From positions 96,001-160,000 of the IMG/VR virus record IMGVR_UViG_3300045988_122072: 64,000 bases of DNA, one strand, 5' to 3'. This document shows positions 4,144-47,908 of the stretch, in pieces (the stretch's first letter is position 1; each line of letters starts with the position of its first letter). Under the pieces are notes generated by a model that worked only from the letters and a program-made list of their open reading frames with translations, was not told where the DNA came from and did not search any database. A program made the position numbers and the translations under genes. This DNA comes from a virus.

Positions 4144-4198
4144 TTGACAAATTGTAAATACATGATATACTAATACAGGGTAAACAATACAAAATTAA
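4144..4198 (+). promoter_or_regulatory. Sigma-A type promoter plus conserved 15-nt leader box
   Basis: TTGACAAAT (4144-), 16-nt spacer, TGaTATACT (4163-4171), then ACAATACAAAATTAA (4184-4198) just upstream of an SD. Confidence 0.7.
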
Positions 4199-4215
4199 TA
4201 GAGGATGGTGTATAT

Positions 4216-4371
4216 ATGAAAACAGATAAGTATATTTTATTTTTCAAACACAATGGAGTTAATAAATGGATTGACGCAAATAATCTATCACTGCTTAAAA
4301 CAGTGCCGAATATTTGCGGGTGGATGACAGAATACAAAATTATTGACAGTATAACTGGAGAGGAGGTATAA
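4216..4371 (+). CDS. hypothetical small protein (51 aa)
   Basis: ATG 4216 follows GAGGATGG. The ORF ends one nt before the next start. It is below the ORF-track cutoff. It contains a 13/15 copy of the leader box at 4329-4343. Confidence 0.45.
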   Translation: MKTDKYILFFKHNGVNKWIDANNLSLLKTVPNICGWMTEYKIIDSITGEEV

Positions 4372-4372
4372 A

Positions 4373-5473
4373 ATGAGGGTGTATATGGACAATGCTGCTA
4401 CAACTCCCATTTGTGAAGCAGCAAAGAAAGCTATTCTAGAAAATTTGGATGAGTTCTATAATCCCAACAGTTCTTATGAGACGGCTCGTACTGTCAAAGT
4501 AAAGGTAGAAGAAGCACGTGAAAAGATTGCGGAATTGATTGGGGCAGAATCCAACGAAATCTATTTCACGTCTGGTGGATCAGAAGCAAATTCATGGGTG
4601 ATGTGTAATGGATTTTCTGTTGCTTCTAATATTGAACATCATTCTATTAAATCAGATTTTAAAATTAATGTAAATTCAAATGGATTGATTGATTGTACAA
4701 AGTTTAAAACAAAGATACATGAAATGAAAGACAATGATTTTTGTATTTCACCAAGCATTGCGTCATGTATGTTTGTAAATAACGAAATAGGGGTAATTGA
4801 ACCAATTAAATACTTGGCAAAGATTGCACATGACAATAATATGTTGTTTCATTCAGACGCAGTACAGGCCTTCCCTCATATGAAGATTGATGTAAAAAAT
4901 CTTGGCGTAGATATGATGTCGTGTTCGGGGCACAAGTTTGGCTCTCCTAAGGGGATCGGCTTCCTGTATATTAAAAATGGAATTAGTGTTAATCCATTAA
5001 TTAATGGTGGCGGACAAGAAAGAGGGATCCGAGGCGGCACGACCAATGTACTGGGCATCCTTGCAATGGCAGCAGCTTTAGAATATACAATCACGCATAT
5101 GGATGAAAATAATGCTAAACTCTCTTGCTTATCAAAGAAATTAAAGGATAACTTACTTGGGGTAAAAGGAGTCACACTTAATGCAATTGATGCAAAAACT
5201 CCATGTATAGAAAGTATTTTAAACCTCAGGATTGACGATGTGAAGAGTTCTGACCTAGTCACAATGTGTGATCTATATGGCATTGAGATTAGCTCTGGGT
5301 CGGCATGTAACGAAGGAACAGCAGAACCTTCTCATGTGCTCAAAGCTATTAGGCTCACAACCGAACAGGCATTAAGCAGCATTAGAATCTCACTATCTCA
5401 TCTAAACACTGAAGAAGAAATCGACTATGTTTCTAAAATGTTACCAAAAATTATTTCCAGATTACGCCAGTAA
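4373..5473 (+). CDS. Cysteine desulfurase (NifS/IscS-like class V aminotransferase)
   Basis: SGHKFGSPKGIGFLY (PLP lysine motif), SSGSACNEG (catalytic Cys loop), N-terminal YMDNAATTP. Confidence 0.85.
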   Translation: MRVYMDNAATTPICEAAKKAILENLDEFYNPNSSYETARTVKVKVEEAREKIAELIGAESNEIYFTSGGSEANSWVMCNGFSVASNIEHHSIKSDFKINVNSNGLIDCTKFKTKIHEMKDNDFCISPSIASCMFVNNEIGVIEPIKYLAKIAHDNNMLFHSDAVQAFPHMKIDVKNLGVDMMSCSGHKFGSPKGIGFLYIKNGISVNPLINGGGQERGIRGGTTNVLGILAMAAALEYTITHMDENNAKLSCLSKKLKDNLLGVKGVTLNAIDAKTPCIESILNLRIDDVKSSDLVTMCDLYGIEISSGSACNEGTAEPSHVLKAIRLTTEQALSSIRISLSHLNTEEEIDYVSKMLPKIISRLRQ

Positions 5474-5478
5474 GGTAC

Positions 5479-5522
5479 TTGACAAATGAAGATTCCATGC
5501 TATAATAACAATACAAAATTAA
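5479..5522 (+). promoter_or_regulatory. Sigma-A type promoter plus leader box
   Basis: TTGACAAAT (5479-), 16-nt spacer, TGcTATAAT (5498-5506), ACAATACAAAATTAA (5508-5522). Confidence 0.7.
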
Positions 5523-5541
5523 TTGAAAGGAGATTGACACC

Positions 5542-15568: not shown

Positions 15569-15889
15569 ATGATTAGCAAGGAAACATTTGTGAATACTAT
15601 GAACAAGCTGCGGGATCTTGATAGGAAAATGGACGCAGTAGATAAAGCGTTTAAGGCATTAGACTCAGACTTCTGTAGTTTTTATGTTACGGGTATTTTT
15701 GATACAACATTTGATCTTCTTAAAGAAGCAATGAATGACAAGGACAACTGGATTGAATATTTTGTCTATGAAAGAGATTGGCTTAGAGATTTTAAACTTG
15801 GTGACGTCGAAGTAAATGGTGAGCCAGTGAAGATTTATTCGTGGGGAGATGTCTATGATTTTATCGTAACGGAGGATAAGCATGTTTAA
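15569..15889 (+). CDS. hypothetical protein (106 aa)
   Basis: ORF after AAGGAGGG. Tightly packed with its neighbours. Confidence 0.6.
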   Translation: MISKETFVNTMNKLRDLDRKMDAVDKAFKALDSDFCSFYVTGIFDTTFDLLKEAMNDKDNWIEYFVYERDWLRDFKLGDVEVNGEPVKIYSWGDVYDFIVTEDKHV

Positions 15890-16373
15890 GAAATTGTGCT
15901 GGGAAATTTTATTCAGATATAAGAATGCACGACAAAAGAGATTAATTCGAGTATACAAGAAAAAGTATCCAGATTATATCGATGATGAATACAATTGTGG
16001 TAATTTGAAATTTATCTGGGGCATTAAATCTTATGATGACATGTCTTCATCTGACGCAAACATGTGGACAATGAATGATATTGATATTTATTACGATAGA
16101 GATACTAAACAATATAGTTTAGGGGTTGAAACCATATATATGTTTGACGATACACAAGCTGAATGCGCATATTATAATAGCTTACTAGAATCGTTCACTA
16201 AATATATGAAGGAAAATGGACTGGACACAGAACGAAATTATTGCACGTTTTGTTCTGGCCTAGATCTAAGTCTTAAGGCTGATTCTATTGAGGAGCTTTA
16301 TGCCAGATTTAAAATTGCCGTAACTGGATTGTGTGCGGTGTGCGAGGAGAGAGGTAATTATGAATATCATTAA
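15882..16373 (+). CDS. hypothetical protein (163 aa)
   Basis: Overlaps the upstream stop by 8 nt. Co-directional array. Confidence 0.55.
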   Translation: MFKKLCWEILFRYKNARQKRLIRVYKKKYPDYIDDEYNCGNLKFIWGIKSYDDMSSSDANMWTMNDIDIYYDRDTKQYSLGVETIYMFDDTQAECAYYNSLLESFTKYMKENGLDTERNYCTFCSGLDLSLKADSIEELYARFKIAVTGLCAVCEERGNYEYH

Positions 16374-16836
16374 CAATTACTCCACAACCATTGTGTCTAT
16401 TTTTCAAGATGTTATTAATAATTACGAAAGAAACCTTGAGATTATCAAACAAGCAGAAGAAGAACTTATGGATCTAGAACATGAAATTGAATTGTCCGCC
16501 CCAAAAGATATGTATAAAGGATACTTGGCATATAAAGAAGTTAGAGATGTACGTATTAAAAGGCGCAAAGCCAAAGAAGAAAATGAATTACTTAAAGATA
16601 TGTATGATTATCTCAAAAGTCAGCAAGGACAGTCATTCAAGAATAAGATCCAATCCATTCAGGGTGCGTCAGTAAAACTACGGGATGCACAAGAACATAG
16701 AACCTATATTCCAAGACAGAGAAGTGATTTGACGATTACTAATCATACAAGCGTTGCGCACAAGCCATTTGAGGAAATGTTAAGTGATTTTAATAAGATT
16801 AAGGTGAGCACTCAGAATGGTAAGTTAAGAAAATAA
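16360..16836 (+). CDS. hypothetical coiled-coil protein (158 aa)
   Basis: ATG 16360 follows GAGAGG. The ORF-track start at 16333 has no SD. Confidence 0.55.
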   Translation: MNIINNYSTTIVSIFQDVINNYERNLEIIKQAEEELMDLEHEIELSAPKDMYKGYLAYKEVRDVRIKRRKAKEENELLKDMYDYLKSQQGQSFKNKIQSIQGASVKLRDAQEHRTYIPRQRSDLTITNHTSVAHKPFEEMLSDFNKIKVSTQNGKLRK

Positions 16837-16849
16837 GTGGTGGAGAGGA

Positions 16850-17041
16850 ATGGGTATTTATTATTTTACAAGACCAGATCAGATGGCTGGGCATAAATTT
16901 ACTGATGATGTTGCAGTCGTATGGGCAATGAGTAAGAAATCTGCAATCAAGAAGTTCTCTGTGCTATATGCAGATGTGCAGGAGAATGAAGTCGATAAGG
17001 TTGGTTTCTGGACTCGTGCCAGAGTTTTAACAGATTATTAA
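16850..17041 (+). CDS. hypothetical protein (63 aa)
   Basis: ORF after GGAGAGG. Confidence 0.5.
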   Translation: MGIYYFTRPDQMAGHKFTDDVAVVWAMSKKSAIKKFSVLYADVQENEVDKVGFWTRARVLTDY

Positions 17042-17053
17042 CGGAGTGATTTA

Positions 17054-18958
17054 ATGAATAAGATTGATAGAGTTCGAGAATTAACAGAATTGCTTAATAA
17101 GGCAGCGGACGCATATTACAATACCGGCGATACAATTATGGAGGATCATGAGTTTGATACACTCCTAGAAGAGCTTTGTTCTTTAGAGCAAGAAACTGGA
17201 TTTGTTATGGCAACTTCGCCTACGCATAAAGTTGGATACGAAGTAAAATCAGAACTACAGAAGGTAACACATAATCATCCTATGTTGTCTTTGGCAAAGA
17301 CTAAAGATTGGAATGAGTTCATTATGCATTTTGGGAGCAAAGATGTCATAGGAATGTTAAAGATGGATGGATTAACTTGCAGCTTAAGATATATTGACGG
17401 TGAGCTAGTATCAGCAGAAACTCGTGGCAACGGAGAAATTGGTGAAGACATTTTTCACAACATCAAAACCGTAAAGACAGTTCCACAGAAGATTCCATAT
17501 AAGGATGAACTCATTGTTGATGGTGAGATTATTTGTACATATGAAGACTTTGAGCCATTCTCTACTGAATATAAAAATCCAAGAAACTTTGCTTCAGGAA
17601 GTATTAGACTGCTTGATTCAAACGAGTGTGCAAAAAGACCTCTAACTTTTGTGGCTTGGAATGTAATCAAGGGCTTTGATAATGAAAATAGCTTCTTGCG
17701 TAAGCTAGTACTTATTGACGAGTTAGGTTTTACTGTTGTTCCGTGGACTAGTTCTTTTGATTGGGATGCGAAGGAATTTTTGGTCAATAAGGCTAAGAAG
17801 CTTGGATACCCAATTGATGGTTTGGTTGGACGCTTTGGTGATATTAAGTATGGGGAGAGCCTTGGAGCAACATCACATCATAGTAATGCAGCTTACGCAT
17901 TTAAGTTCGGTGATGAAACTTATGAAACGGTACTAAGAGATGTTGAGTGGAATACGACAAGAACCGGAATTATTGCTCCAGTAGCTGTTTTCGATGAGGT
18001 TGACCTAGACGGAGCCTTGACTACAAGAGCTACACTTCACAACCTTTCCATTATTGAGCAACTTGAGCTTGGTATTGGAGATACTATTACGGTGTACCGT
18101 AGCAATATGGTAATTCCAAAAATTGATGACAACCTAACCCGTAGCAATACATTAAAGATCCCTACTACCTGCCCATGTTGTGCCTATCCTACAGAGGTCA
18201 AGTATACAGACAATAGTAAGGTGCTAATGTGTACTAATCCAGATTGTCCAGCAAGAAACCTTGCTAAATTTGAGCACTTTGTTTCTAAAAAAGCAATGGA
18301 TATACAAGGACTTAGCTCCGCAACTCTAGAGACGTTAATTTCGCATGGTTTTATACACAAGTACAAAGATATCTACCATCTAAGCGACCACAGGAGTGAA
18401 CTTATTAGGCTTGATGGATACGGCGCAAAGTCTATTGATAATCTATTGGAATCCATTGAAAAATCAAGGAACGTGAAGCTAGAAAACTTTATTACAGCAT
18501 TATCAATTCCTAATATTGGGTTGTCTGCGGCAAAGGCTATCAGTAAGAAATTTAATGGTGATCATTATGAATTTATACAGGCGTTGTCCAGCGATTATGA
18601 CTTTAGTCAGATTGATGATTTCGGAGAGATTACGAATAAATCATTGCACGATTGGTGGAAGAGTAAAGATCCAATGGCAGAGCTATTGCCTATGGAAATG
18701 AATTTTATTGTTGAGGAGAAGAGTGCCGATAATTCGTTAAGCGGGCTTAAATTCTGTATAACTGGAACTTTTAGTCAATCACGAGACGAGCTTAAAGCAA
18801 TACTTGAATCTAAAGGAGCAAAGTTTATTAGTTCTGTAAGTAAAAATCTCGATGTGCTTTTTGTTGGAGATAAAGCTGGTAGCAAACTTGCTAAAGCACA
18901 ACAACTTGGAATTAAAATTGCAGACGAAAACGAACTAATGAAGATATTGGGCGATTAA
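17054..18958 (+). CDS. ligA: NAD+-dependent DNA ligase
   Basis: Adenylation motif KMDGL. Zn-finger CPCC...C...C. HhH region. C-terminal BRCT-like FCITGTF...LFVGDKAGSKLAKAQQLGIKI. Confidence 0.9.
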   Translation: MNKIDRVRELTELLNKAADAYYNTGDTIMEDHEFDTLLEELCSLEQETGFVMATSPTHKVGYEVKSELQKVTHNHPMLSLAKTKDWNEFIMHFGSKDVIGMLKMDGLTCSLRYIDGELVSAETRGNGEIGEDIFHNIKTVKTVPQKIPYKDELIVDGEIICTYEDFEPFSTEYKNPRNFASGSIRLLDSNECAKRPLTFVAWNVIKGFDNENSFLRKLVLIDELGFTVVPWTSSFDWDAKEFLVNKAKKLGYPIDGLVGRFGDIKYGESLGATSHHSNAAYAFKFGDETYETVLRDVEWNTTRTGIIAPVAVFDEVDLDGALTTRATLHNLSIIEQLELGIGDTITVYRSNMVIPKIDDNLTRSNTLKIPTTCPCCAYPTEVKYTDNSKVLMCTNPDCPARNLAKFEHFVSKKAMDIQGLSSATLETLISHGFIHKYKDIYHLSDHRSELIRLDGYGAKSIDNLLESIEKSRNVKLENFITALSIPNIGLSAAKAISKKFNGDHYEFIQALSSDYDFSQIDDFGEITNKSLHDWWKSKDPMAELLPMEMNFIVEEKSADNSLSGLKFCITGTFSQSRDELKAILESKGAKFISSVSKNLDVLFVGDKAGSKLAKAQQLGIKIADENELMKILGD

Positions 18959-18996
18959 ATTTTGGGTAGCAGTATAAAAAATTGTATTGTCACCTC

Positions 18997-19057
18997 TTGA
19001 CAAATAAGAAAAAATGTGCTATACTAATAACACTTAAAAAATACAATACAAAATTAA
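18997..19057 (+). promoter_or_regulatory. Sigma-A type promoter plus leader box, upstream of tnpB
   Basis: TTGACAAAT (18997-), 17-nt spacer, TGcTATACT (19017-19025), ACAATACAAAATTAA (19043-19057). A partial inverted copy AAAAATTGTATTGT lies at 18977-18990. Confidence 0.6.
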
Positions 19058-19126
19058 AGAATAAAATATCATACGAATCATACGAAACGGTAAGAAGCAA
19101 AATTTTCAGAAAGGAGGTAATAGTTG

Positions 19127-20236: not shown

Positions 20237-20347
20237 AAAGACATAAAATATAGGGTAGGAACTGCCCGAATTAACGCCTGTGGAGATAGTAGGCTACGAG
20301 GTCTGAGAAACAGGAAGCTAATTAATTTTAAACAATTGGTAGTTCAC
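20237..20347 (+). ncRNA. Putative omega-RNA (reRNA) scaffold of TnpB / right end of the IS
   Basis: The 111 nt after the tnpB stop are non-coding and visibly GC-richer (GGGTAGGAACTGCCCGAATTAACGCCTGTGGAG...). The position matches known TnpB guide-RNA loci. The 5' end probably lies inside tnpB. The guide would start at 20348. Confidence 0.5.
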
Positions 20348-20386
20348 AAATATTATAATTATGCTATAATAACAGTACAAAATTAA
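20343..20386 (+). promoter_or_regulatory. Promoter plus leader-box variant, with its -35 partly supplied by the IS right end
   Basis: TTCACAAAT (20343-), 16-nt spacer, TGcTATAAT (20362-20370), ACAGTACAAAATTAA (20372-20386), then AAGGAGG. Confidence 0.6.
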
Positions 20387-27471: not shown

Positions 27472-27487
27472 TCATTAAGCCTTGCTA

Positions 27488-27800: not shown

Positions 27801-27846
27801 TTAGTTAACATAAATTATAATAGTAGTACAATTAATTTTGTATTGT
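27791..27846 (+). promoter_or_regulatory. Putative int promoter with a palindromic version of the leader box
   Basis: TTGACC (27791-), TATAAT (27816-27821, 19-nt spacer). GTACAATTAA / TTAATTTTGTATTGT (27826-27846) forms an inverted pair of box half-sites. Confidence 0.45.
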
Positions 27847-27862
27847 TAAAGGAGTGGTTATT

Positions 27863-29280: not shown

Positions 29281-29286
29281 TAAATC

Positions 29287-37694: not shown

Positions 37695-40600
37695 TCATCT
37701 TGTGAACCTTTTTAAACTATTGTTAACGCCCTTCATATAAGAATCTAGTTGAGCCTTAACTGCATCCTTAATATCAGGTATAGAATCCCTATCAGCATGT
37801 TCGATATTGATCATATTGCCGAATGACATATTAAGCTCAATACTATTATTGATAATATAAGGAGCGCCAATCTTAGGTTTATTTCTGTCAAGAATATCTT
37901 TCGGATCTAGAGTCCCAAGCTTCATAAGATTATCAGTAATATCACTTGGAATCACAGAACTGCCTTTACTTAGATATTGTAACCTACCATTCGTGTCTGC
38001 ATGTAATACTAATTCTTCTAGCCCAAGTTCGTCAGTAATTGCAAATTGGTCGTTTGGAACTTTCTTAATACCTTTTGCATATCCCTCTATGTCGCTTAAC
38101 TTGATCCAGCCAGTATACTGTCCGTTTCTGCCAATTAGCACTTCAGAGCCACTAACTTGATAAACAGTAAATGTAGAACCAGGAACCCAAGATTGCATTC
38201 TAGTACCATTGCCGCCATCTCTAGTAAAGTGAGTAGCAGACTTCTTAACAGTCACGCTAGAACCATTAGCCGGAGCAGCAGGTTTTTGAGGAGCACTAGG
38301 TTGTTGTGGAGTAGATGGCGTTGGAGTAGTATATGTCGCACTAGATGTCTTGTTGGCATTTTGATTAGTAGCGTCAATTAAATGTCTTGCTGTCTCATCC
38401 GCCGCAGCTTGTAAATCAAGAAGTTGTTTCTTAATTGCTTCTAGTTGCGCAGTAAACGCACTTGTAGATGTATTTAATTGATCTTGATAAGTACCTATCG
38501 CAATTACGCCTTGTTCCCAAGGATTTGTAATTGCTTCTGACAAATTAATGCCATATTCATCGGCAATTTCTTTTAATGTCCCTGCAACTACTTCTGTATT
38601 TCCAGTAATTGTCGCAAAACTATCAGCGATTACTTGCTCAACATTCTTTAGATATTCATCAAGAGCTTCCATCTCTTTTTCTTTTTCGTCTTGATAGTTC
38701 TCTGCTTGATCGTCCAACGCATCTTGTTGTTTCTCGATACTATGACTATAATATAACTCATCTAATTCTTCTTGTGCTGCGGCAAGTTCCGCTTCAAGCT
38801 TCTTTCTTCTGGCAATAGCACTTGCGGAATTATCCCCAGCTATTGCAGCAAGTTGCTTTTGAATATTTGCAATATTCTTTTGTTGCTCTTCTACCTGCTT
38901 AGAGAAATCATGAGCATCTTTAGAAAGTTGCAATTCCTCTTTCTTTTTATTTATAAGCTCATTATAAGCGTCAATTTCCTCTTGCATCGCATTTTTTGCA
39001 GCATCAACACGAGTTTTATTAAGAGCAATAAGAGCATCTTTTGCAGCCTCATATGACTTTATACTATCCCATTGTCCGTCTTTGAGTTCTTGTAGTTTTT
39101 CGTTATACTCATCTGTACTATACTTTCCAGCGGCATATTCTTGATTAAGGTATTCAATTTGTTCTGCATATTGTTTTGCCCTATATTGGGCGCGTTCCAT
39201 TTCTTGGGCAAGTAGACCCATTTTAGTGATGCCCTCATTAGTCCAATTGCCCATTTCATCGGCAATATCCTCATCATCGATTAAATCGCCTAAATTAGAT
39301 ATTTCATTGCCGACATTATCAATAGCTTTAATAAGACCATCAAAGTTATCCCAGTGTAACTGATTGATAGAATTTTGGAATCCTTCAATCTCTTTACGGC
39401 AGTCAATAATAGCCTTGTCAACATCTTGAATTGCGGCGACCCCTTCATACCATTCCTCAGAGCCGACATCAATATTGCCAGCAGAAACCTGAGCATCAAA
39501 TTCTTTTTGCATGTCATTGCGTTTCTTTTGAAGTTCATCGAGTTCTTTGATGCTATTCTTAATCATTTCTTCATACATTACTGCAGAAGTACGTTCGCCT
39601 TGCTCGTCTATCAGATCAACGTTCGCCTGAAGCAAATCGTTAAGAGTTGTAATCTTAGTAATAACTCTATCATACTCATCCGCAATAGTTTGCACTTTTT
39701 GTAATGAGAGTGATGTAATTTCTTTCTTGACTTGTTGCTGTTGTGTTCTTACATCTGATGCTTTTTGTGCCCATTCACGATAGTTATTAATTGCCTCTAC
39801 AACTTCTTGATTAGCTTCTCCTAAGAATTCTGTTAAAGCAACACCGCCATTTTTAGCAAGCTCTTGATATTGCTGTGGTATCTTCTCTAAAAGTTGTGCG
39901 GCATAATCCGCATAAAGTTTATAACCTTCTCCAAGTTCTGTCAATTTATACTTATTAACATTGATCATTTGATCTTGAATATCATTTTTAGCAGAAATAC
40001 CTACGGCATTTTCTAGTGCTGCGGACATATAATTTAAATCATCATCAATCTCTTCAAGCAAAACTGCGAACCAATCGAACATTTCTTCAAAATCATTGGC
40101 AGCATCAGAAAGATCATCTCCAGCGTCAGATAAACTATCTGCTGCATCATTCAAATCTGTCCAGAAATTATCATTCTTAGCGCCACTATAATAAGTTGGC
40201 GTCGTATAATCTGGAACGATTGTTACATGTGCATTACCTTCAGAGTAGGCTTTGCCACGAGAATTGATATGCCCGTTCTTGAACAACTCTTCGGTTTGCT
40301 TGTGATTAAAGATAATTGCATTCTTTGGCAAATCTACAAATTCTGCGCCATTATCTCCAACAGTATAATATTTGCCAGTTTTAGGGTCTACAACGGTTTC
40401 CATCCCGAGTTCGCCAACTAAAGCATCATCTTCTGCTTGTGGCAATCCCCAATTACCAGATGCATGAGCTGTGCCATCTGCATATATTGTCAGTCGTCCG
40501 CTCGCACCAGGAGTATGAACTGTTTGTTCGGTTCCCTTACCGATGGTTTGATAAGCTGTTGTAATTGTAAATGTTTTATCACTAATGCTTGTCGCATTAA

Positions 40601-43600
40601 GCTTATCAAGTTTCGCTTGAACTGCACTTACGTTTTCTCCTGTTGCTACAAGCTCAGAAGATGTAGATTCAATCTCGCTTTCTAGATTTGAAATAGCTCC
40701 AGTATCTCCAACATAATGGAGTAATTTAGCCGTTTTATCTGCATCCTGACCAATACCTTCAAGAAGATTCTTAACGACAACTCCATCAACTTCCAATCCT
40801 TTGGTATCAAGTTGGAATAGTTCATCACTTGTCCATTTCCCATCATTTTGCTTCGCTTCGTCAATAAGTCCCCAGATATACTTATCTACAGTATTGGAGT
40901 CAAGCAATTGTGGGCCATTTTCTGTCTGTAAAATCGGAGTAAACGATATGTCTTCTCCATCAAATTCACCAACAGAACTTAATAAAGTGGAATATGTGCC
41001 AACCAAATCATCGGCTTTCATGCCCCAACTATCTATTGCGTCGCCATACTTATCAAGTGACTCTTCGTCCCAATATAGTTCCTGACGATCATTAGTATCT
41101 ACATTCCCATATTTTGTTTGAGATAAATCTGTGCCAATGTCATCTGCAAGAGATTTAGCATTAAGTACATCTGTTACATATTGATTAATAAGATTGTCAA
41201 GTTCTCTCATTCCGTCAGAAGTGTCATCAATGGCAGACGCTACCTCTTTGCCAGTATAAGAACCGTTGCCCTGCAAATCTTTTACAACGCCAGCAAGGCC
41301 AACTGAACTAAAGCCAGATGATTCAACGGCTTTGTCTCCGCCGAGACTAAACATTTCCATAATAGTATTAAGATAACCATCTTTATATTTGGAAAGTTCG
41401 CCCTCAAATCCAGTCCAATCTTTTTCATCATACTCTCCAGGAACAGCACGAATAACCAAGTTATACTTATCAGAATCAAGAAGATCCTGCGTTGATCCAT
41501 TCGTGACAAGACCATCTATATAGTCGGCAAGTGCATCAGATGTTAAAACATCTCCATTCTCAAGAACAGGAGTAATATCAATAGTATACTTATTCTTATC
41601 CCCAATTGTTACAGTCTCTGCGGAAGTACTTGCATAGATTTCTCCGTCAGAGCCGATGAATGAATTGTATCCTCCACCCATAGCAAGATCATGTTCATAC
41701 GATGGAGATAAATGTGGACGTTTACGAAGGTCTACATTACCGTTTACCAATTTTTCATATTGCGCGCACATTTCTTCAGCATATTTAGCAAGCTTATTAA
41801 GTTTTAGCTTATCAAATATGTTGCTGATAACATTTGTCCCGCTTGCATATGCTTTGCCTCTACTATTAATATAACCATTTTTAAGCAGAGATTTTGTTTG
41901 CTTATGGTTAAATATAATATCGCCTTTTTTGACATCAGCAAACTCTGCGCCATTTTCTCCAAGCATATCCCAACGATTTCCACGCACACGAAGTTCTGGG
42001 CCTAATTCACCAACTAAAGATGTATCAGCTGATTCTGCACCCCAATTGCCAGAAGCGTGAGCCGTACCATTAGCCATTGTAGAATTTAATTCATAACGGC
42101 TACGACGTCCACTATGCTTCGTCGCTGTCTGATTTTCATTTACCTCACGATATGTAGTAGTTACAGTAACACCAGTAGGAACTCTGTCAATTGCGTCAAT
42201 CAAATTATTAATTGATTTTACGGCAGCAGTGCTATCAACACTTGGGTCTGGGAGTGCCTCAATAGCCTTCTTCGCTGCTTCTGCGGCAGTTTTTACTTCT
42301 TCAATTTGTGCCTTTGCCTCTTCTTTATTTTCAACAAGAAGGTTAATAACTCCTTTGTCATTCAATAAATCCACGTACTGTTGTAGCTTCTGACGCTCAT
42401 CATCAGTGATCTCTACATCTGGCTTGATTTTATATCTACCATCTTCTCCAAGCTCTACAAGCTTACTATCATCTATATTAGCTATATTCGCTTTGACTGC
42501 CAGCTCGTTATTATTTGCTTTCCACACAGCCATTTGAGAGTCTATGTCATCTAACGCAAGCTGAATTGATACCTCTGTGGGTTCTTCTAGATTGTACTTT
42601 TTCTTTAATGCCTCTCCAAGTTGTTCAGTTAATTCTTTAACTTTTTTAGTTTGTGCATTTATTTCTTCTTGAGTATATCCACTATTAGGTTGATTCATTT
42701 CATTCAGCTTTTTCGTAGCTTGTTCAACTTCATCTTTTAAATTTGTGACTTCCTTCGTGACATTTTGATACTCTACAGCATTCTTTCTTGCATCTTCTGC
42801 GCAACCTTGTAGCTTACTATTAGCTTCCTGATATTTTTGTGCCCATTCTTCAACGCCAATTTCATTATTTGCTAAAGCGACATCCAGCTCCGCCAAATTT
42901 TTAGTCGCCATAAAAATATTGCCTTCAAGACCTAAGTCAAGCTGGTCGAAAACGGAACCAAAGTCTCCATTTAACCATTCTGCATCATAAGAATCAATTT
43001 CTGTAAACATTGCAAAAGCCATTTCTTTTGTAATTTTCATCTTATCACAGAAATCATCTAATGTTTTAATATCACTTGAAAGCTCAAAATGTTGCCAATC
43101 ACCTTTATTTGTAAATACCCCTTTTTCTTGAGCGCTTTCAATGAACGCCTGAACATTATCTAAGGTCATCTCTGCGCTTTCAAGGGTGCCATCATCACTA
43201 AATTTCAATGTAAAATATTTACTGAAATCCGAATTCTTTAAATAATTGGCAATAGCAGCGACTTTTTCTTCTACCGTATCAAAACCAGCATAAACATCTT
43301 CTGGAATCATACCTGCCACAGCAGCCTTAAAAGATTCTGTTCCAAGTTTTGCTGATTGCAATCCTTCAATAAGTCCAGAAATCATATCTTCTGCTTTGCT
43401 GCCATAATCCTTTGCTTCATCGGCAGATTTTGCGTCTTCATATTTTTGATATGCATCCGCAGCTCCAAGCAACTTCTGTTCAAGAAGGCTATACTTTGCG
43501 ATTGTTCTTTCTACTGCTCCCATTTCTTTATAAAGAGCATTAATTTCTTTTGCGTTAGCTTGCGCGAGTTCGCCATTTGCTCCAGTTAATTGCTTAATTT

Positions 43601-46229
43601 TCTTATACAGCTCATAATACTTTAATCTAGCTTGAGACCTTTCAGTTCTTGCATTTTGAGCAGCTTCTTGTCTCTTCTTTGTAATCAGCTTGTTAAGCAG
43701 TGACGCATTTTTAACCACGTATCCATTTGTTGTGTCAATTGCATCTGCATATTCTTTTTCATCACCAATGAGTGTTTTTAATGCTTCGCCCTGTTCGTCA
43801 GTAAGTTTTATTTTATCATAAACTACTTCGTTTTGAACAGATTGTGCACTAGTAACTTTATCAATTTCATCAGCATAATTAGAAAAAGTACTACCAACTG
43901 GATCGACTTTATTAAGCTCAGCGTGTGCGGCGGCAGAACCTAAAGAATTAATTTGATCCACAGCATCTTGTGTACTAAGCCCAATTTTATTTAACTCATT
44001 CCTAAATTCGCTATAATCTGAACCATTTAACGAATCTGCTGTAAGTTCTCCAGTCTCCGCCAAAGAATATAATTTCTTTTTAACCTCTGGATACTTTTCT
44101 AATAGAGCATCAAATTGTTCGGTATAATATTCACCTGGGTTAATTGTTTTATCTATATCAAGTGCCATTTGCTTAAGCTTATTTGCGAAATCATCATCGA
44201 CATTTTCGCCATAATTATCTAGATAATCATATAGCTCTGTTCCATATGTAGATAATGTTTCTTTAAGATTTTGCATTGATGATTCAATTGACTTCTTTTT
44301 AGAATCTAGGGCAGACTTTTCGTCCTCACTCATTGCACTAGTATCTGTATTAATAAGCTCATTCCATTCTTGCCTTAACTCATTATATTTTTCAATGCCC
44401 TTTTGAATATAGCCTTCTTTGTCTATACTACCATCAGAAATATATTTTAAATCTCCATTCAGTTCATCAGATATTTGTGCCTCAACTCTTAGTAACTCTG
44501 CTACTGCCTCATCGCTTAATTCTCCCCATTGCGATACATCGGCAAGCATATTATACAACTTTTCAGAATACGGTTTAATTGCATTTCTTAAATTATCATT
44601 AATGATTTGATTATTTTTTGCATTTTCTATTTCAGCCTTGGCAATTGTGGCATTACCATACCTTTCGTCATCTTTATTGGTTTTAACTTCTTCTATGCTT
44701 AAGTTTTTAACATTAAAATCTTTTTTATAATCTTCTTTTGTTTCTTTCTGTAGTTCTTTTTGCTTAGAATCTTTGCTTTCGTTTAACAGTCTTAATCTTC
44801 TTTCCAATTCCTCATTGGTTTGTTTTAAAGTTTCTAATTCTTCTTTTTCTACAAAAGATAGGTTATGTTTTCCTTCTAGCTCTTCAATTCTATTTTTAGT
44901 AGTCTCAAGTTCAGAATTTAGGCTTTCAATTTCATTATTTAGATCTTGAATTTCATTCTTTAATTTCTCTGATGCTGGAGTCATATTAGCTATCCAAGTA
45001 ACCAACGATATAACTAAAGTAATAGCCATCAAAATCCATCCAACCGGATTAGACGCCATTAAAGATTTCAGTGCTGCCGCAACGCCATGAATAGACGTAG
45101 AAAGTCCTTGATTCGCAGCGGTCAAACCAAATGCAGATATAATTTCTGCGCCCTGAGCGGCAGTTAATGTCCCCGTTGCTACCGCTTCTTGAACTTTTGC
45201 TAATGTCAGTTCTGTTTCTCCCTGAGTTAAAAGCCAGTTGGTTGATTCAGCAGAAAGCTTTACTGCTCCCTCAGCAGCCATTGCTGCAGCATTTGCAGCA
45301 GTAACCGTAGTTTGTTCAGTTTTTGCAGTCGTTACTTGGGCCTCTGATACTGCCTGTTGTATATTCGCTTTATCTACTCCGTTTTTGGCCATTGCTTCTT
45401 CTATTTGTGCCTTTGTTAAACCAGCAGAAGCAAGAGCTGCCGCCTGTTGCTTCGCGGTTAAATCACTAACTGCGGCAGCATACGCACTAAGATTTTGCAC
45501 ATTAAATTCGGCAGCAGATATTTTACCAGCTTCTCCAAGTCCATTTAATGATTGAATTGCCTTAATTTTCTCCAATGCCTGTCCATAATTAGATACATTG
45601 GCGGAAATTTCTTTAAACATAGTAACTGGGTTTATCTTTTTAGAGATTAATAAATATGAAACTACTCCTGCTAATACTGATTTAAATAACCCAAATGAGT
45701 CTACAGCTTTTACAACTGCGGTTCCTAAATTAACGAAAAATTTAATCCAGCTACTGTCGAGCGCATCAGACCACATTGTCTGAACTGCATTTTTAAATAG
45801 GGTGATTCTTCCCTGAATGCTGTTAAGTTGTTTTTCATTTTCAGCCATTGCAGAACCTTCTGCATCTAATGCGTCTTGATATGCACCTTCAAGGTCTTCA
45901 ATATTGGTAAGCATTGCAGCCATAGCATTTGAACGGTTTTTACCAGCGAGCATTTCAAGTAATGCCGCCTGATCAATGTCGCTCATATCTTTCCAGACAG
46001 TCGCAATTTCTTTTATAATATCATATGTTGCCTTATAGTCGCCGGTTTCAGTTAAAATATCTACACCAGTTAAAGCTTTAACTTTAGATTGAAGCTTGCT
46101 GACACTCTCTACTACATTATCAGTTTCTTCGCCTAGTGATTCCAATTCCTCTACACTTGTACCTCTAATACGTAGTGAGATGGTACGGAGGGCACTTCCT
46201 ACGCTTGATGGATCCTGTAATACTTTATT
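37695..46229 (-). CDS. Tape measure protein, exon 2 (2844 codons plus stop)
   Basis: Frame is open upstream of the ORF-track TTG start back to 46232. It begins NKVLQDPSSVGSALRTISLRIRG. A TM segment and long coiled coils follow. There are two GTAHASGNWG...LVGELG...NSRGKAY modules and a C-terminal SH3-like segment. Confidence 0.75.
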   Translation of the reverse strand, partial: NKVLQDPSSVGSALRTISLRIRGTSVEELESLGEETDNVVESVSKLQSKVKALTGVDILTETGDYKATYDIIKEIATVWKDMSDIDQAALLEMLAGKNRSNAMAAMLTNIEDLEGAYQDALDAEGSAMAENEKQLNSIQGRITLFKNAVQTMWSDALDSSWIKFFVNLGTAVVKAVDSFGLFKSVLAGVVSYLLISKKINPVTMFKEISANVSNYGQALEKIKAIQSLNGLGEAGKISAAEFNVQNLSAYAAAVSDLTAKQQAAALASAGLTKAQIEEAMAKNGVDKANIQQAVSEAQVTTAKTEQTTVTAANAAAMAAEGAVKLSAESTNWLLTQGETELTLAKVQEAVATGTLTAAQGAEIISAFGLTAANQGLSTSIHGVAAALKSLMASNPVGWILMAITLVISLVTWIANMTPASEKLKNEIQDLNNEIESLNSELETTKNRIEELEGKHNLSFVEKEELETLKQTNEELERRLRLLNESKDSKQKELQKETKEDYKKDFNVKNLSIEEVKTNKDDERYGNATIAKAEIENAKNNQIINDNLRNAIKPYSEKLYNMLADVSQWGELSDEAVAELLRVEAQISDELNGDLKYISDGSIDKEGYIQKGIEKYNELRQEWNELINTDTSAMSEDEKSALDSKKKSIESSMQNLKETLSTYGTELYDYLDNYGENVDDDFANKLKQMALDIDKTINPGEYYTEQFDALLEKYPEVKKKLYSLAETGELTADSLNGSDYSEFRNELNKIGLSTQDAVDQINSLGSAAAHAELNKVDPVGSTFSNYADEIDKVTSAQSVQNEVVYDKIKLTDEQGEALKTLIGDEKEYADAIDTTNGYVVKNASLLNKLITKKRQEAAQNARTERSQARLKYYELYKKIKQLTGANGELAQANAKEINALYKEMGAVERTIAKYSLLEQKLLGAADAYQKYEDAKSADEAKDYGSKAEDMISGLIEGLQSAKLGTESFKAAVAGMIPEDVYAGFDTVEEKVAAIANYLKNSDFSKYFTLKFSDDGTLESAEMTLDNVQAFIESAQEKGVFTNKGDWQHFELSSDIKTLDDFCDKMKITKEMAFAMFTEIDSYDAEWLNGDFGSVFDQLDLGLEGNIFMATKNLAELDVALANNEIGVEEWAQKYQEANSKLQGCAEDARKNAVEYQNVTKEVTNLKDEVEQATKKLNEMNQPNSGYTQEEINAQTKKVKELTEQLGEALKKKYNLEEPTEVSIQLALDDIDSQMAVWKANNNELAVKANIANIDDSKLVELGEDGRYKIKPDVEITDDERQKLQQYVDLLNDKGVINLLVENKEEAKAQIEEVKTAAEAAKKAIEALPDPSVDSTAAVKSINNLIDAIDRVPTGVTVTTTYREVNENQTATKHSGRRSRYELNSTMANGTAHASGNWGAESADTSLVGELGPELRVRGNRWDMLGENGAEFADVKKGDIIFNHKQTKSLLKNGYINSRGKAYASGTNVISNIFDKLKLNKLAKYAEEMCAQYEKLVNGNVDLRKRPHLSPSYEHDLAMGGGYNSFIGSDGEIYASTSAETVTIGDKNKYTIDITPVLENGDVLTSDALADYIDGLVTNGSTQDLLDSDKYNLVIRAVPGEYDEKDWTGFEGELSKYKDGYLNTIMEMFSLGGDKAVESSGFSSVGLAGVVKDLQGNGSYTGKEVASAIDDTSDGMRELDNLINQYVTDVLNAKSLADDIGTDLSQTKYGNVDTNDRQELYWDEESLDKYGDAIDSWGMKADDLVGTYSTLLSSVGEFDGEDISFTPILQTENGPQLLDSNTVDKYIWGLIDEAKQNDGKWTSDELFQLDTKGLEVDGVVVKNLLEGIGQDADKTAKLLHYVGDTGAISNLESEIESTSSELVATGENVSAVQAKLDKLNATSISDKTFTITTAYQTIGKGTEQTVHTPGASGRLTIYADGTAHASGNWGLPQAEDDALVGELGMETVVDPKTGKYYTVGDNGAEFVDLPKNAIIFNHKQTEELFKNGHINSRGKAYSEGNAHVTIVPDYTTPTYYSGAKNDNFWTDLNDAADSLSDAGDDLSDAANDFEEMFDWFAVLLEEIDDDLNYMSAALENAVGISAKNDIQDQMINVNKYKLTELGEGYKLYADYAAQLLEKIPQQYQELAKNGGVALTEFLGEANQEVVEAINNYREWAQKASDVRTQQQQVKKEITSLSLQKVQTIADEYDRVITKITTLNDLLQANVDLIDEQGERTSAVMYEEMIKNSIKELDELQKKRNDMQKEFDAQVSAGNIDVGSEEWYEGVAAIQDVDKAIIDCRKEIEGFQNSINQLHWDNFDGLIKAIDNVGNEISNLGDLIDDEDIADEMGNWTNEGITKMGLLAQEMERAQYRAKQYAEQIEYLNQEYAAGKYSTDEYNEKLQELKDGQWDSIKSYEAAKDALIALNKTRVDAAKNAMQEEIDAYNELINKKKEELQLSKDAHDFSKQVEEQQKNIANIQKQLAAIAGDNSASAIARRKKLEAELAAAQEELDELYYSHSIEKQQDALDDQAENYQDEKEKEMEALDEYLKNVEQVIADSFATITGNTEVVAGTLKEIADEYGINLSEAITNPWEQGVIAIGTYQDQLNTSTSAFTAQLEAIKKQLLDLQAAADETARHLIDATNQNANKTSSATYTTPTPSTPQQPSAPQKPAAPANGSSVTVKKSATHFTRDGGNGTRMQSWVPGSTFTVYQVSGSEVLIGRNGQYTGWIKLSDIEGYAKGIKKVPNDQFAITDELGLEELVLHADTNGRLQYLSKGSSVIPSDITDNLMKLGTLDPKDILDRNKPKIGAPYIINNSIELNMSFGNMINIEHADRDSIPDIKDAVKAQLDSYMKGVNNSLKRFTR

Positions 46230-46271
46230 CTTTTATATTTAATACGTTTCGCAACAACGTATTGCATGTTA

Positions 46272-47417
46272 TTATTGATAATATTTATTTAAAAATTCAT
46301 TCCATTGTTCCTCAGTGTTGTCACCATAACCATAAATATTATGAAATTGCTTATGAATATTTTCTGATATACATATATAACTATGATATTTTTCTTGCAA
46401 ATCAAAAAATGTTTGGAATAATTCGTCTATTTGTTCTCCCGAATATTCTTTTACATCACTATATATTGGAAAGTTTATCTTATCAATTGCTTCGTCCAAT
46501 ATTAAATTAAACCCTCTTATATGATGAACAACTATATGGGAGCGGCATCCAGTTATTTTACATGTATAATTATTTGCTTCTTTTATTTTATTTTTCCAAG
46601 GAATAAGCTTTTTTCTAATATATTCCGCAATAGTATCATATCCCCTTTTATCTATTGGCCTATATAGTTTTAAGCTCCATAAATGTTGTGCAATTGCTTT
46701 TACTCCCCTATTAAGATACGATGCCAATTCTTCATTTGTATATTTTAAATAATTTTCTTTTAAATACAAATTCTCTTCTTCTGTATATGTTCGATTGGAA
46801 TAATAAAAACTTTTTAAATTCAATTTTCTAGCTTGTCCTAATATCGACGATTTTGTACGTTTTGGGAGCATTGCCATTACCTCATCAAACGATATATTTG
46901 AATAATTCTCTTTTAAAATATCTATTTCATCATTTGACCATTCTCTGTTAGATGTTAAATTTAATTCTACTGCCTTCCTGCTTATTTCTTTAACGGATCT
47001 ATTGTTATTAAGCAAAGTACGAATATTTTTATATGGAATTTTCCCATAATTGTTCATTAGTATATTTATTTCATTATCATTCCACGAAATAGCATTATAA
47101 CGACATTCTTTAGAACAATAATGATGTGTATTCTTATCAACTTCAGATATTTTTCTAAAGAATTGTCTTCCACAAAATTCGCATTTGCATTCTTCCTTCT
47201 TTTCTGTAGATTTTGTTCTACATTCAACACTACAAAAAATTTGTCCAGAATAAGCTGGCCTAAATCTTTCTCCACAAATCTCACAATTTCTATATTTTAG
47301 TTTTCCGTTATTTCTTTTAAATTCATTCATACAGTTTCTACTACAATACTTAGTATTTTCAAAATAATCTGAAAATTCTTTTTTGCAATTATTACATATA
47401 TGATTATATTTTCCCAT
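46272..47417 (-). CDS. Intron-encoded HNH homing endonuclease
   Basis: Three CxxC...CxxxC zinc ribbons, three Myb/SANT-like W/Y-x-EE repeats, and a C-terminal HNH core CRSHIVVHHIRGFN...HKQFHNIYG. Confidence 0.8.
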   Translation of the reverse strand: MGKYNHICNNCKKEFSDYFENTKYCSRNCMNEFKRNNGKLKYRNCEICGERFRPAYSGQIFCSVECRTKSTEKKEECKCEFCGRQFFRKISEVDKNTHHYCSKECRYNAISWNDNEINILMNNYGKIPYKNIRTLLNNNRSVKEISRKAVELNLTSNREWSNDEIDILKENYSNISFDEVMAMLPKRTKSSILGQARKLNLKSFYYSNRTYTEEENLYLKENYLKYTNEELASYLNRGVKAIAQHLWSLKLYRPIDKRGYDTIAEYIRKKLIPWKNKIKEANNYTCKITGCRSHIVVHHIRGFNLILDEAIDKINFPIYSDVKEYSGEQIDELFQTFFDLQEKYHSYICISENIHKQFHNIYGYGDNTEEQWNEFLNKYYQ

Positions 47418-47450
47418 AATTTTATCTCCCGTATATTATCAAAATAAATT

Positions 47451-47624
47451 TCATTTTCTACTATAAAAAATAGCCAATGCATTAAAAAGATCTGACGATT
47501 TTGTATATTTATATGTAGTTACACCATTTATAATTTTAACAAAGGATGGTTTTATACCAATTGTTAATAAATAATCTCTCTCTGGTGTATATTGCGTAGA
47601 ATATTCTTTATCAAATTTTTTCAT
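47451..47624 (-). CDS. small DUF5659-like protein (57 aa) inside the intron
   Basis: ATG 47624 follows GAGGGAAAT. DYLLTIGIKPSFVKIINGVTTYKY...LFNALAIFY resembles the DUF5659 pattern (memory). Confidence 0.4.
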   Translation of the reverse strand: MKKFDKEYSTQYTPERDYLLTIGIKPSFVKIINGVTTYKYTKSSDLFNALAIFYSRK

Positions 47625-47863
47625 ATTTCCCTCTCTAAATAATAACATGCCAATATATTTCTATATTGAATAGACCATATCTTCATCCTCAGCATTACCT
47701 GTTAGGAGCACACCATTTCGTTTAAAGGTATTTAACCAACGCCATTTGCGATTGCGTCCTACTCCTATTGATTTGAGTATTCGGGATTTTACCCTTATTT
47801 TATAATCAATTAGATATTCTCAAATCCCTTCATGGGGATGGCCGTTGAACCTTTTGCTTGATT

Positions 47864-47908
47864 TTAATTTTGTATTGTATATTATATCACAAAATTTAAA
47901 TTTGTCAA
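47864..47908 (-). promoter_or_regulatory. Early-type promoter plus leader box inside the tape-measure intron
   Basis: The minus strand reads CTTGACAAAT, 16-nt spacer, TGaTATAAT, then ACAATACAAAATTAA (47878-47864). Confidence 0.65.

Follow-up and report, generated by a model that had tools for sequence, protein, structure and literature searches.

A dispersed, oriented 15-nt box in a family of gut phages as a probable operator of an MrpR/SroF-related master repressor

The lysogeny of SPβ and phi3T is maintained by MrpR and SroF, catalytically dead proteins with a tyrosine-recombinase fold that were characterised in 2023–2025, so far only in SPβ-like phages of Bacillus, and were presented as unique among phage repressors in having this fold. 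A single MrpR/SroF monomer closes like a clamp around one long, asymmetric box; such boxes are found at many places in the genome, and binding represses the associated promoters. The SPβ element, SPBRE (tAGACAAATACAAAWAATATGTATATAAT), was derived from ten MrpR-bound SPβ regions and is bound in vivo as DNA; it constitutes the promoter core itself or is located between the -10 box and the Shine-Dalgarno (SD) sequence, always co-oriented with the genes. SroF also binds its asymmetric box as a monomer, and in SroF-phi3T the bases are read by L25 and Y26 of the CB domain and by K233, F234, H237 and R238 of the CAT domain.

Three further systems resemble the element described here. [quoted passage not shown] The SAS of Cluster K phages are asymmetric 13-bp repeats in front of many non-structural genes, all in one orientation except for a single reversed copy per genome, and they contain the SD core 3–7 bp from the start codon. 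The monomeric C1 repressor of P1, unrelated in protein and host to the system described here, recognises asymmetric operators of 17 bp that are distributed across the genome of this large temperate phage and control many separate operons; to our knowledge no promoter-less, oriented intergenic copies have been reported for it.

The 64-kb stretch of viral DNA analysed here (the window) contains seven exact copies of the 15-nt box ACAATACAAAATTAA, at 4184, 5508, 12125, 19043 and 25528 on the plus strand and at 27832–27846 and 47864–47878 on the minus strand. Two copies with one mismatch (beginning ACAGTAC) are found at 20372 and 21601 and two copies with two mismatches at 4329 (+) and 56917 (-). 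With up to two mismatches allowed this makes 11 matches against 1.14 expected, a number reached in none of 100 shuffles, which confirms the repeat proposed in an earlier sequence-only reading of the window. The copy at 56917 was absent from that reading, is situated inside the tape-measure ORF and is probably a chance match. Most likely the box is not a new kind of element but extends the recently described repressor system to new phages, and we put the probability that it is the operator of an SPβ-type, MrpR/SroF-related master repressor in a family of large phages of gut bacteria at about 75%.

All six strong sigma-A-type promoters of the window, with -35 boxes at 4144, 5479, 12081, 18997 and 20343 (+) and at 47908 (-), share the arrangement TTGACAAAT, a spacer of 16 or 17 nt and TGnTATAAT or TATACT, and each is followed by a box 1, 1, 2, 12, 16 or 17 nt after the -10 box, in agreement with the 1–17 nt noted for six copies from the sequence alone. 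The first unit (4144–4198, +) consists of a -35 box at 4144–4149, the -10 box TATACT at 4166–4171 and an exact box at 4184–4198, 12 nt after the -10 box, followed by an SD sequence and an ORF of 51 aa (4216–4371). A degenerate copy with two mismatches, AGAATACAAAATTAT, at 4329–4343 (+) is located 29 nt upstream of the start of an aminotransferase gene (4373); this AGAATAC variant is present in relatives too and is a weak site. In the unit at 5479–5522 (+; -35 box 5479–5484, -10 box 5501–5506) the exact box at 5508–5522 abuts the -10 box with a gap of 1 nt, and the predicted transcription start falls inside the box. The third unit (12081–12139, +; -35 box 12081–12086, -10 box 12103–12108) has its exact box at 12125–12139, 16 nt after the -10 box and with the SD sequence of the gene 12154–12735 directly downstream.

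The only box in the 35-kb structural block on the minus strand belongs to the unit 47864–47913 (-35 box 47908–47903, -10 box 47886–47881), where an exact box at 47878–47864 follows the -10 box after 2 nt. This promoter is followed by a leader of 216 nt and two small genes (47648–47451 and 47417–46272; 65 and 381 aa) lying between two giant ORFs, the only match of the pair being a weak, sub-threshold one to NinG. The observation that no copy precedes the late structural genes holds; the sole copy of the block follows the sigma-A promoter of this small gene pair. The proposal that this copy also lies within about 20 nt of an SD sequence does not, as no usable SD is found within that distance and one has to go 216 nt downstream to reach the start of an ORF of 50 aa or more. 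Unlike the L5 stoperators, which occupy both genome arms, the boxes are missing from the structural operon, an observation that runs counter to an operator model.

Two copies at gene junctions lack a promoter, as had been noticed earlier. The box ACAGTACAAAATTAA at 21601–21615 (+), 12 nt before the start of an NT5C gene (21628), encodes the C-terminal residues and the stop codon (T V Q N *) of the ORF 21055–21615, while the exact box at 25528–25542 (+) begins 1 nt past the stop codon of an RNR fragment (24087–25526) and is followed by the SD of a mini-ORF and an HNH/AP2 endonuclease gene (25585–26328). The exact copy at 27832–27846 (-) is inverted relative to the integrase gene whose SD and GTG start (27854) it directly precedes, and it is situated at the edge of an attP-like region. 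The rule that the box always points with transcription is therefore valid for the other window copies but not for this one. A partial inverted copy suggested at 18977–18990 was not counted as a box: the ligase gene is followed by a hairpin, found in relatives as the conserved sequence GGTGGCAGTATAAAAATTGTATTGCCACC, and the suggested copy is one of its arms.

When related phages were searched, the box was found to be conserved in at least 30 related contigs. These belong to uncultivated phages, with contigs of about 80–170 kb, from gut and rumen Clostridia; no close relatives were found among deposited phages. A survey of 45 related loci (396 kb) together with the window gave 119 box copies, 109 of them intergenic and 115 co-oriented with the local genes. 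The motif is non-palindromic with sharp edges, consisting of 15 nt and a preferred TG. It occurs in fixed registers, as the ACA of the -35 box plus the spacer, abutting the -10 box, 12–17 nt after the -10 box, or at promoter-less gene junctions, and of 60 strong promoters with an extended -10 box, 50 have a co-oriented copy (registers -26, +1/2 or +12–17) and at least two others hold it inverted in the spacer. Twelve unrelated promoters, one of which drives a tRNA gene, read TTG|box|TGTGnTATAAT, and in 20 promoters where the 5' part of the box (its first ~5 nt) is predicted to lie upstream of the transcription start this part is nearly invariant.

About 60% of the boxes outside promoter cores show no sigma-A promoter above background. 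These promoter-less copies fit closely into the gap separating a stop codon from the following SD, their conservation is as sharp as that of the others and nearly all are co-oriented. The boxes downstream of promoters and the promoter-less ones mostly end 12–25 nt before a start codon, with -2 to +8 nt separating the box end and the SD; where the intergenic space is long, about half of the boxes are far from the next detectable start codon. Among 185,579 species genomes the composite of -10 box and box occurs only nine times, in every case on gut or rumen MAG contigs. Rfam at gathering thresholds matched only tRNAs, with nothing at any box and no structure, and a literature search for the motif string returned nothing relevant. 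With a CodY half-site the box shares no more than 6 of 7 bases.

A gene for an MrpR homologue was found in 30 contigs of the family, including the closest relative of the window. It is absent from the 64-kb window, where Pfam revealed no HTH regulator among the 47 ORFs, and for this phage we infer the repressor from the relatives; its gene would be expected some 20–25 kb upstream of the window start, the place it has in contig 3300045988_106160. The homologue in the relative L026 (8042–8935) was first spotted by eye and then confirmed by BLASTP against YopR (2e-14), by PDB searches (8bj6 and 8a0a, both YopR/MrpR, at ~1e-11 and 9rd5 at 5e-11 over residues 1–268) and by Pfam; it aligns with YopR over the full length, and the identity of the repressor to YopR is ~24%. 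Another MrpR-like protein is encoded in L154 (4001–4885). In Pfam the MrpR_N_CB domain scored 54.4 and 47.8 bits (cutoff 27) and MrpR_C_cat 21.7 and 26.5, just under the cutoff of 27; a local tblastn with YopR against all fetched loci gave no match. When a chain-numbering offset of +2 is assumed, the homologue has L, Y, R, Y, Y and R at the base-reading positions of SroF-phi3T. The gene directly upstream in L026 is a member of the Phage_integrase family (1.2e-29) resembling YopP of SPβ (3e-7), with no yopQ-like gene between it and the repressor. A recombinase-like gene in L026 had also been considered as the YopR homologue but is not YopR-like, the true homologue being the next gene.

In all 19 clade-1 contigs (close relatives) an inverted box, in the variant ACAATACAATATTAA, forms the promoter spacer of the repressor's own gene, while Bacillus-type relatives are without boxes. 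The two clades of the repressor are only ~45% identical and share the same box consensus, which gives no evidence of a specificity switch with the box co-varying with the clade. That the same box is kept by repressors so different is an observation that speaks against the operator model, immunity operators normally being diversified.

Like SPβ and phi3T, the present phages have the features of large temperate siphoviruses of Firmicutes whose early promoters are scattered. They share with them a repeat that is asymmetric, rich in A and T and 15 bp or longer, found at many dispersed sites, co-oriented with transcription and situated in the promoter core or in the interval between the -10 box and the SD. 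As in SPβ, the homologous repressor gene lies beside a YopP-like recombinase gene. The box shares with SPBRE a 9-nt core, AATACAAAA, and a promoter-like context, although the alignment score was equalled in 12% of composition-matched shuffles (p about 0.12), and anchored on the terminal TG it matches the SPβ and phi3T (Phi3TRE) boxes at 12 of 17 positions each. The hosts, in contrast, are uncultivated gut and rumen Clostridia instead of Bacillus and the repressor is distant (identity to YopR as given above); the density of sites is higher, SPβ having about 15 in its 134 kb and the window 10 in 64 kb, most sites are promoter-less gene junctions and the promoter of the repressor gene itself holds an inverted box. 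A non-systematic inspection of the sequence examined showed no arbitrium genes.

At the strong promoters the box covers the -35 box together with the spacer, extends from -5 to +10, or occupies about +6 to +25; a protein on it would be predicted to overlap RNA polymerase. From the homology of the protein, its co-occurrence with the box and the inverted box in its own promoter we infer that the repressor would bind the box and repress the adjacent promoter. The earlier suggestion of an operator half-site for a phage regulator is thus favoured as to the operator, while the box is better regarded not as a half-site but as an asymmetric site complete in itself, such as a monomeric MrpR/SroF-type repressor binds. 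According to the proposed mechanism the gut-phage MrpR homologue would bind ACAATACAAAATTAA(TG) on double-stranded DNA; in the prophage the bound repressor would silence the early promoters dispersed over the genome, among them the promoters of selfish genes that have inserted, such as tnpB and the HNH endonuclease gene. The inverted box, which is slightly weaker, would let the repressor regulate its own gene. Promoter-less, co-oriented intergenic copies would be additional binding sites and may be polar barriers to transcription reading through from upstream, like mycobacteriophage stoperators. The published SPβ model, with operators in promoter regions, leaves the promoter-less copies unexplained, and a role at the RNA level would fit these too.

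An RNA-level function, in which the box is read on the mRNA, just upstream of the SD, by a factor of phage or host origin in an SAS-like manner, be it for enhancing translation, for repression as by RegA or for cleavage or stabilisation of the message, agrees with the distance of most boxes to the SD and start codon, the strict co-orientation with genes and the restriction of the window copies to non-structural genes, and the SAS have a similar distribution with their single reversed copy per genome. We nevertheless regard it as unlikely. The copies inside promoter cores, in either orientation, favour recognition of DNA rather than RNA: the box is part of the promoter itself in the 12 cases described above, including that of the tRNA gene, it is inverted in the spacer of 19 repressor-gene promoters, and 20 promoters conserve its first ~5 nt at positions ahead of the predicted start. 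Against a leader element are also the boxes, about half of those in long intergenic spaces, that are far from the next detectable start codon, the lack of an Rfam family or structure and the binding of the homologous SPβ element as DNA in vivo. The SAS furthermore differ in containing the SD core, while the box has no G-rich SD core, lies upstream of the SD and is linked to an identifiable repressor homologue. The RNA processing or stabilising site, translational enhancer and antiterminator target listed as possible roles in the sequence-only reading are disfavoured on these grounds. An antisense or "anti-box" RNA was likewise rejected, the inverted copies being located in promoter spacers and thus not transcribed as such.

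A dual use, with the box as a DNA operator at promoters and as a polar, stoperator-like elongation block or translational operator at junctions, would account for the many promoter-less copies that are equally sharp and nearly all co-oriented, and the L5 stoperators are a precedent for a one-orientation block by a monomeric asymmetric repressor. This too appears improbable, as intergenic compaction could bring any required site beside an SD and the long structural operon is without boxes. Least credible, and in our opinion very improbable, is that promoter-plus-box units are recombination or module-boundary sequences for cassette shuffling, as known for the promoter-early stem-loop cassettes of T4 that shuffle between phages, or else that the box is recognised by a host factor or by a polymerase specific to the phage. 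Such units do precede mobile genes (tnpB, HNH), the tnpB cassette of the window lies inside a promoter -35 box and a mosaic breakpoint in the relative L129 begins exactly at cctcTTGACAAAT, but the breakpoints are at the -35 box and not at the box, whose edges are sharp and which keeps set registers relative to the -35 and -10 boxes, and promoter-less copies do not coincide with module boundaries in close relatives. A function of the box as a promoter or -10-like pause element is disfavoured by the SD, which often begins directly after the box and would be deleted by a transcription start downstream of it, and no conserved upstream element was seen. All occurrences of the composite of -10 box and box in the species genomes are on MAG contigs of phage-like character and none is in the context of a host chromosome, which speaks against a host regulon.

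If the box is the operator of an MrpR/SroF-type repressor, uncultivated phages appear to use a system known from Bacillus, and a concrete model for lysogeny control is available for them together with a sequence rule for their early promoters (TTGACAAAT, 16–17 nt, TGnTATAAT and the box). More than 100 sites in four contexts would constitute a natural data set on a monomeric, clamp-like repressor at promoters and between genes. By analogy with L5 it is conceivable, though we consider it rather doubtful, that a monomeric repressor of the recombinase fold evolved a stoperator-like mode independently of the L5 repressor, which differs in fold and in also having sites among the structural genes; the promoter-less boxes would then be polar, orientation-dependent blocks to read-through or translational operators. 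Orientation of the box would in that case be the regulatory logic, direct copies silencing lytic genes and inverted copies marking lysogeny genes, as at the repressor's promoter (19 contigs) and in the leader of the window's integrase gene.

The copy at 19043 is part of an inserted tnpB cassette. When analysing the insertion, a hybrid promoter was identified at 18997–19057 (+), in which the -35 box (18997–19002) derives from the original promoter while the -10 box TATACT (19020–19025) and the exact box (19043–19057) are supplied by the cassette. At the right end of the cassette a promoter has been rebuilt (20343–20386, +) with the -35 box TTCACA (20343–20348) and a -10 box at 20365–20370, abutted by the box ACAGTACAAAATTAA at 20372–20386. 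The box was also considered as a target of the TnpB guide RNA and rejected, the sequence after the omega-RNA-like region being different from the box. Selfish genes entering these phages, such as tnpB and HNH endonucleases, would by this arrangement fall under the same control as the early promoters, and in relatives without tnpB the promoter and box are intact at the same site.

With up to two mismatches allowed, the 15-nt box ACAATACAAAATTAA is matched 11 times in the window, whereas dinucleotide-preserving shuffles predict 1.14 matches and none of them equalled this count; the recurrence is genuine and far from random. Exact copies lie at 4184, 5508, 12125, 19043 and 25528 (plus strand) and at 27832 and 47864 (minus strand), seven in all; a single mismatch is seen in the copies at 20372 and 21601, and two in those at 4329 and 56917, the last lying within the tape-measure ORF and probably being a chance match. 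A promoter scan of the window revealed six strong sigma-A type sites (TTGACAAAT, 16–17 nt spacer, TGnTATAAT or TATACT), all six followed by a box at 1, 1, 2, 12, 16 or 17 nt from the -10 box. The sequence-only reading, which had described the box as recurring downstream of such promoters and pointing with transcription, was accurate overall, its copies and promoters being re-found and some details corrected.

Scanning IMG/VR for the exact 15-mer gave many contigs of 80–170 kb with several copies apiece. A family set of 45 loci (396 kb) was chosen independently of box context, a contig being included when it carried at least two boxes or when its flanking sequence was near-identical to that of the window or of such contigs. 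Across these loci and the window the motif edges are sharp, positions 1–15 being conserved and the upstream flank being background, and on the 3' side the motif extends to T16 in 64% and G17 in 46% of the copies. The box is oriented as the local genes in 115 of 119 copies and is intergenic in 109 of 119, in sequence that is ~88% coding. Four contexts were found. In context a the box sits in one fixed register inside the promoter, TTG-ACAATACAAAATTAA-TGTGnTATAAT, contributing the ACA of the -35 box and the greater part of the 17-nt spacer (12 distinct promoters, whose downstream sequences are unrelated). In contexts b1 and b2 it follows the -10 box, by 1–2 nt in b1 (20 distinct promoters) and by 12–17 nt in b2 (another 20), and in context c, ~60% of the 98 distinct boxes outside promoter cores, it has no promoter. 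Of the 60 strong extended -10 promoters in the family set and the window, 50 have a co-oriented box somewhere from -35 to +45, and in at least two others the spacer contains the box in inverted form. A promoter with at most two hexamer mismatches lies upstream of 39% of the 98 non-embedded boxes compared with 1.7% of random positions; since the remaining ~60% resemble background in this respect, the promoter-less class is real.

The gene content of the window recalls the Bacillus prophage SPβ. The master repressor of SPβ, MrpR (YopR, SroF), is folded like a tyrosine recombinase but has no recombinase activity, and ChAP-seq showed it bound to about ten promoter regions with a common 15-bp motif, the same as the "SPβ repeated element" (SPBRE) predicted in 1999 (PMC10516654). 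SroF clamps its long, asymmetric box as a single monomer, and these boxes are dispersed genome-wide (2025 preprint, 10.1101/2025.11.27.690993). The SPBRE consensus, derived here from the ten published regions (AF020713), is tAGACAAATACAAA(A/T)AATATGTATATAAT; it is itself promoter-like (TAGACA, 17 nt, TATAAT), is elsewhere located between the -10 box and the Shine-Dalgarno sequence (yopV, yonX, yopM) and is present in SPβ in ~15 copies, all oriented with the genes. SPBRE and the box have the same anatomy in promoter-core or -10-to-Shine-Dalgarno placement and in co-orientation with genes. They share the core AATACAAAA, but on its own the sequence similarity is not significant in such A/T-rich sequence (shuffle p ~0.12).

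On the sister contig L026 the gene of a 297-aa protein is driven by a promoter whose spacer is an inverted box. This protein is homologous to YopR (BLASTP 2e-14), with which it aligns end to end; it matches the PDB entries 8bj6 and 8a0a (~1e-11) and 9rd5 (5e-11 over residues 1–268) and scores 54.4 bits for Pfam MrpR_N_CB (cutoff 27), with MrpR_C_cat just under its cutoff. Its upstream neighbour is a gene of the Phage_integrase family with similarity to SPβ YopP (3e-7). When IMG/VR was scanned with the alignment, an MrpR-like gene was found in 30 family contigs, among them essentially all the multi-box contigs and 3300045988_106160, the only relative with the tnpB insertion of the window. No MrpR-like protein is encoded within the 64-kb window; in 3300045988_106160 the repressor gene is situated ~21 kb upstream of where homology to the window start is found. 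Four Bacillus-type relatives contain no boxes. The repressor's own promoter reads TTGACnAA-TTAATATTGTA(T/C)TGT-ATAAT in 19 of 19 clade-1 contigs, the spacer being an inverted box with a conserved A10-to-T change. Clade-2 repressors are ~45% identical and show the same box consensus at other sites, while the own promoters of most of them have a spacer resembling an SOS box in place of the inverted box. This spacer, ACAAACAcATGTTCG, lies ~55 nt upstream of the MrpR-like gene in loci L159–L165, L167 and L169 (near 3945 in most, ~3025 in L159 and ~1155 in L164), with no inverted box there, and it resembles the Bacillus-type LexA (SOS) box CGAACnnnnGTTCG. It would be unusual for LexA to control the MrpR-like repressor gene itself.

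The preferred reading of the box is a predicted operator for a master repressor of the MrpR/SroF type. In the prophage state, a temperate phage whose genome contains many consensus sigma-A promoters would have to silence each one, and a protein bound where the box lies would exclude or trap RNA polymerase. The lack of symmetry in the box would be expected, since repressors of this family are known to be monomeric binders of asymmetric sites (10.1101/2025.11.27.690993). The published SPβ model does not explain the promoter-less co-oriented boxes at gene junctions. Their closest precedent is the stoperators of Cluster A mycobacteriophages, at which a repressor bound as a monomer stops elongation in one orientation only (PMC9283540), and by analogy the junction boxes may act in the same way. 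Start-associated sequences of Cluster K (PMC3203893) have a similar distribution, but the box differs from them in position and content. Inverted boxes are found at lysogeny genes: in the window one lies in the integrase leader (27832), and in relatives the promoter of the repressor gene itself contains one. This orientation may be meaningful. The box system would belong to a known, recently described kind of repressor-operator system. Two of its features stand out, the abundance of oriented sites without a promoter and the possible significance of box orientation at lysogeny genes.

The tight spacing of the box to the Shine-Dalgarno sequence would at first sight suit an RNA element; the distance from box end to start codon is 12–25 nt in most context b and c cases. 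These short distances are partly a packing effect between a stop codon and the next Shine-Dalgarno sequence, and within long intergenic spaces about half of the promoter-less boxes are far from the next detectable start codon. Context-a boxes, moreover, are not part of the RNA made from their own promoter, a tRNA gene is among the genes driven by these promoters (the others serve TnpB/Cas12-like, HNH-type and small unrelated genes), and inverted boxes are present within promoter spacers. Positions 1, 3, 5 and 6 of the b1 box are invariant in 20 of 20 cases, although the first ~5 nt should precede the start site. No Rfam match was found at any box. Of the four roles proposed from sequence alone, the first, an operator for a phage regulator, is supported in modified form, while the RNA-level ones (processing or stabilising site, translational enhancer, antiterminator target) are disfavoured by the context-a, b1 and inverted boxes.

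In four cases the TAA of the box is the stop codon of the upstream gene, as at 21601 (TVQN-stop). Read as codons the box is ACA (G/A)TA CAA AAT TAA (T V/I Q N stop), and box-encoded gene ends were seen at 21601–21615 in the window, at 11787–11801 in the related locus L114 and in L120, L128 and L072. Several unrelated proteins end in this way, including the guanylate-kinase-like ORF of the window and a small-protein family in ...ETVQN, so the site is maintained within gene 3' ends.

Among 185,579 species genomes the composite TATAATnACAATACAAAATTAA was found only nine times, in every case on a MAG contig from gut or rumen, and several of these contigs measure 147–163 kb; the element is therefore phage-family-specific, and a host regulon was rejected on the same count. 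The contigs are mostly binned to Clostridia (e.g. Faecalimonas, Ruminococcus, Acetatifactor and Clostridium), tentatively pointing to Clostridia as host.

Pfam annotation of the window indicates a large, siphovirus-like, temperate phage of 35% G+C, with no close match among deposited phages. In the plus-strand block (1–29,000) a tRNA cluster is accompanied by many genes for nucleotide metabolism and nucleic-acid repair: class-V aminotransferase, dCMP deaminase, AAA_33/HD kinase-like, Thg1-like, NAD-dependent ligase, TnpB, guanylate-kinase-like, NT5C nucleotidase and a ribonucleotide reductase in two pieces, after which comes an HNH/AP2 endonuclease. The block ends with an excisionase-like gene (so labelled from its translation, without a family search), an attP-like repeat region and the integrase. 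The minus-strand block (29,287–64,000) is structural, its tail module containing two giant ORFs (37695–46145 and 48027–57674), one a 3215-aa tape-measure protein with a PhageMin_Tail domain at the C-terminus only and the other, of 2816 aa, without Pfam matches.

Six tRNA genes (Asp, Asn, Ile-tat, Gln, Gly, Lys) are clustered at 1045–2842; the tRNA-Ile call is 96 nt long with a lower Rfam score, which suggests an insertion or unusual arm. A box-bearing promoter was not seen ahead of this cluster; in the relative L006 a box-in-spacer promoter precedes a tRNA gene. The AAA_33 kinase-like/HD, Thg1-like 3'-5' nucleotidyltransferase and NAD-dependent ligase genes adjoin at 11107–18958, 3' of the cluster, suggesting a module for repair of tRNA or other RNA. 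Two ORFs (22802–23629 and 24087–25526) together encode the large subunit of ribonucleotide reductase, and the ~457-nt gap between them, with no ORF assigned and no Rfam match, is possibly an intron; 3' of the second ORF lies the HNH/AP2-type homing endonuclease gene (25585–26328), preceded by an 11-codon mini-ORF. Between the excisionase-like gene (27278–27471) and the integrase gene a ~370-nt non-coding stretch (within 27278–27853) carries repeated TGTGGTA(C/A/T) motifs in both orientations and is probably attP, since such repeats are typical of integrase arm-type sites.

The tnpB cassette (19006–20351, ORF 19124–20236) is inserted in the -35 hexamer of an early promoter that is uninterrupted in the relatives L132, L134 and L135 (cctcTTGACAAATattataat...TATAATaACAGTAC). 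Its borders are ...TTGAC/AAAT on the left and ...TTCAC/AAAT on the right; the left end brings a spacer, -10 box and box of its own, giving a hybrid promoter for tnpB, and the right end (TTCACA) rebuilds a -35 box for the downstream gene. The cassette looks like an IS605/IS1341-type insertion 3' of TTGAC, and the guide of such an element would therefore match the intact promoters of sister phages. On the minus strand the promoter and box at 47908–47864 are followed by an ORF-less 216-nt leader (47648–47863) starting aaaGGTTCAACGgCCATC, which may be a structured leader or small RNA; the motif GGTTCAACG recurs just past other box-bearing promoters of endonuclease-like genes in the relatives L029 and L036. 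Behind box-in-spacer promoters in two contigs (L026, 5979–6212; L040, 783–1028) small Cys-rich, basic-tailed proteins are encoded with the signature ...CxGYCRRHQCG...CLxKNCWYLQKNE...KRKDRK, a family with no Pfam match that could be a zinc-binding nucleic-acid-binding protein.
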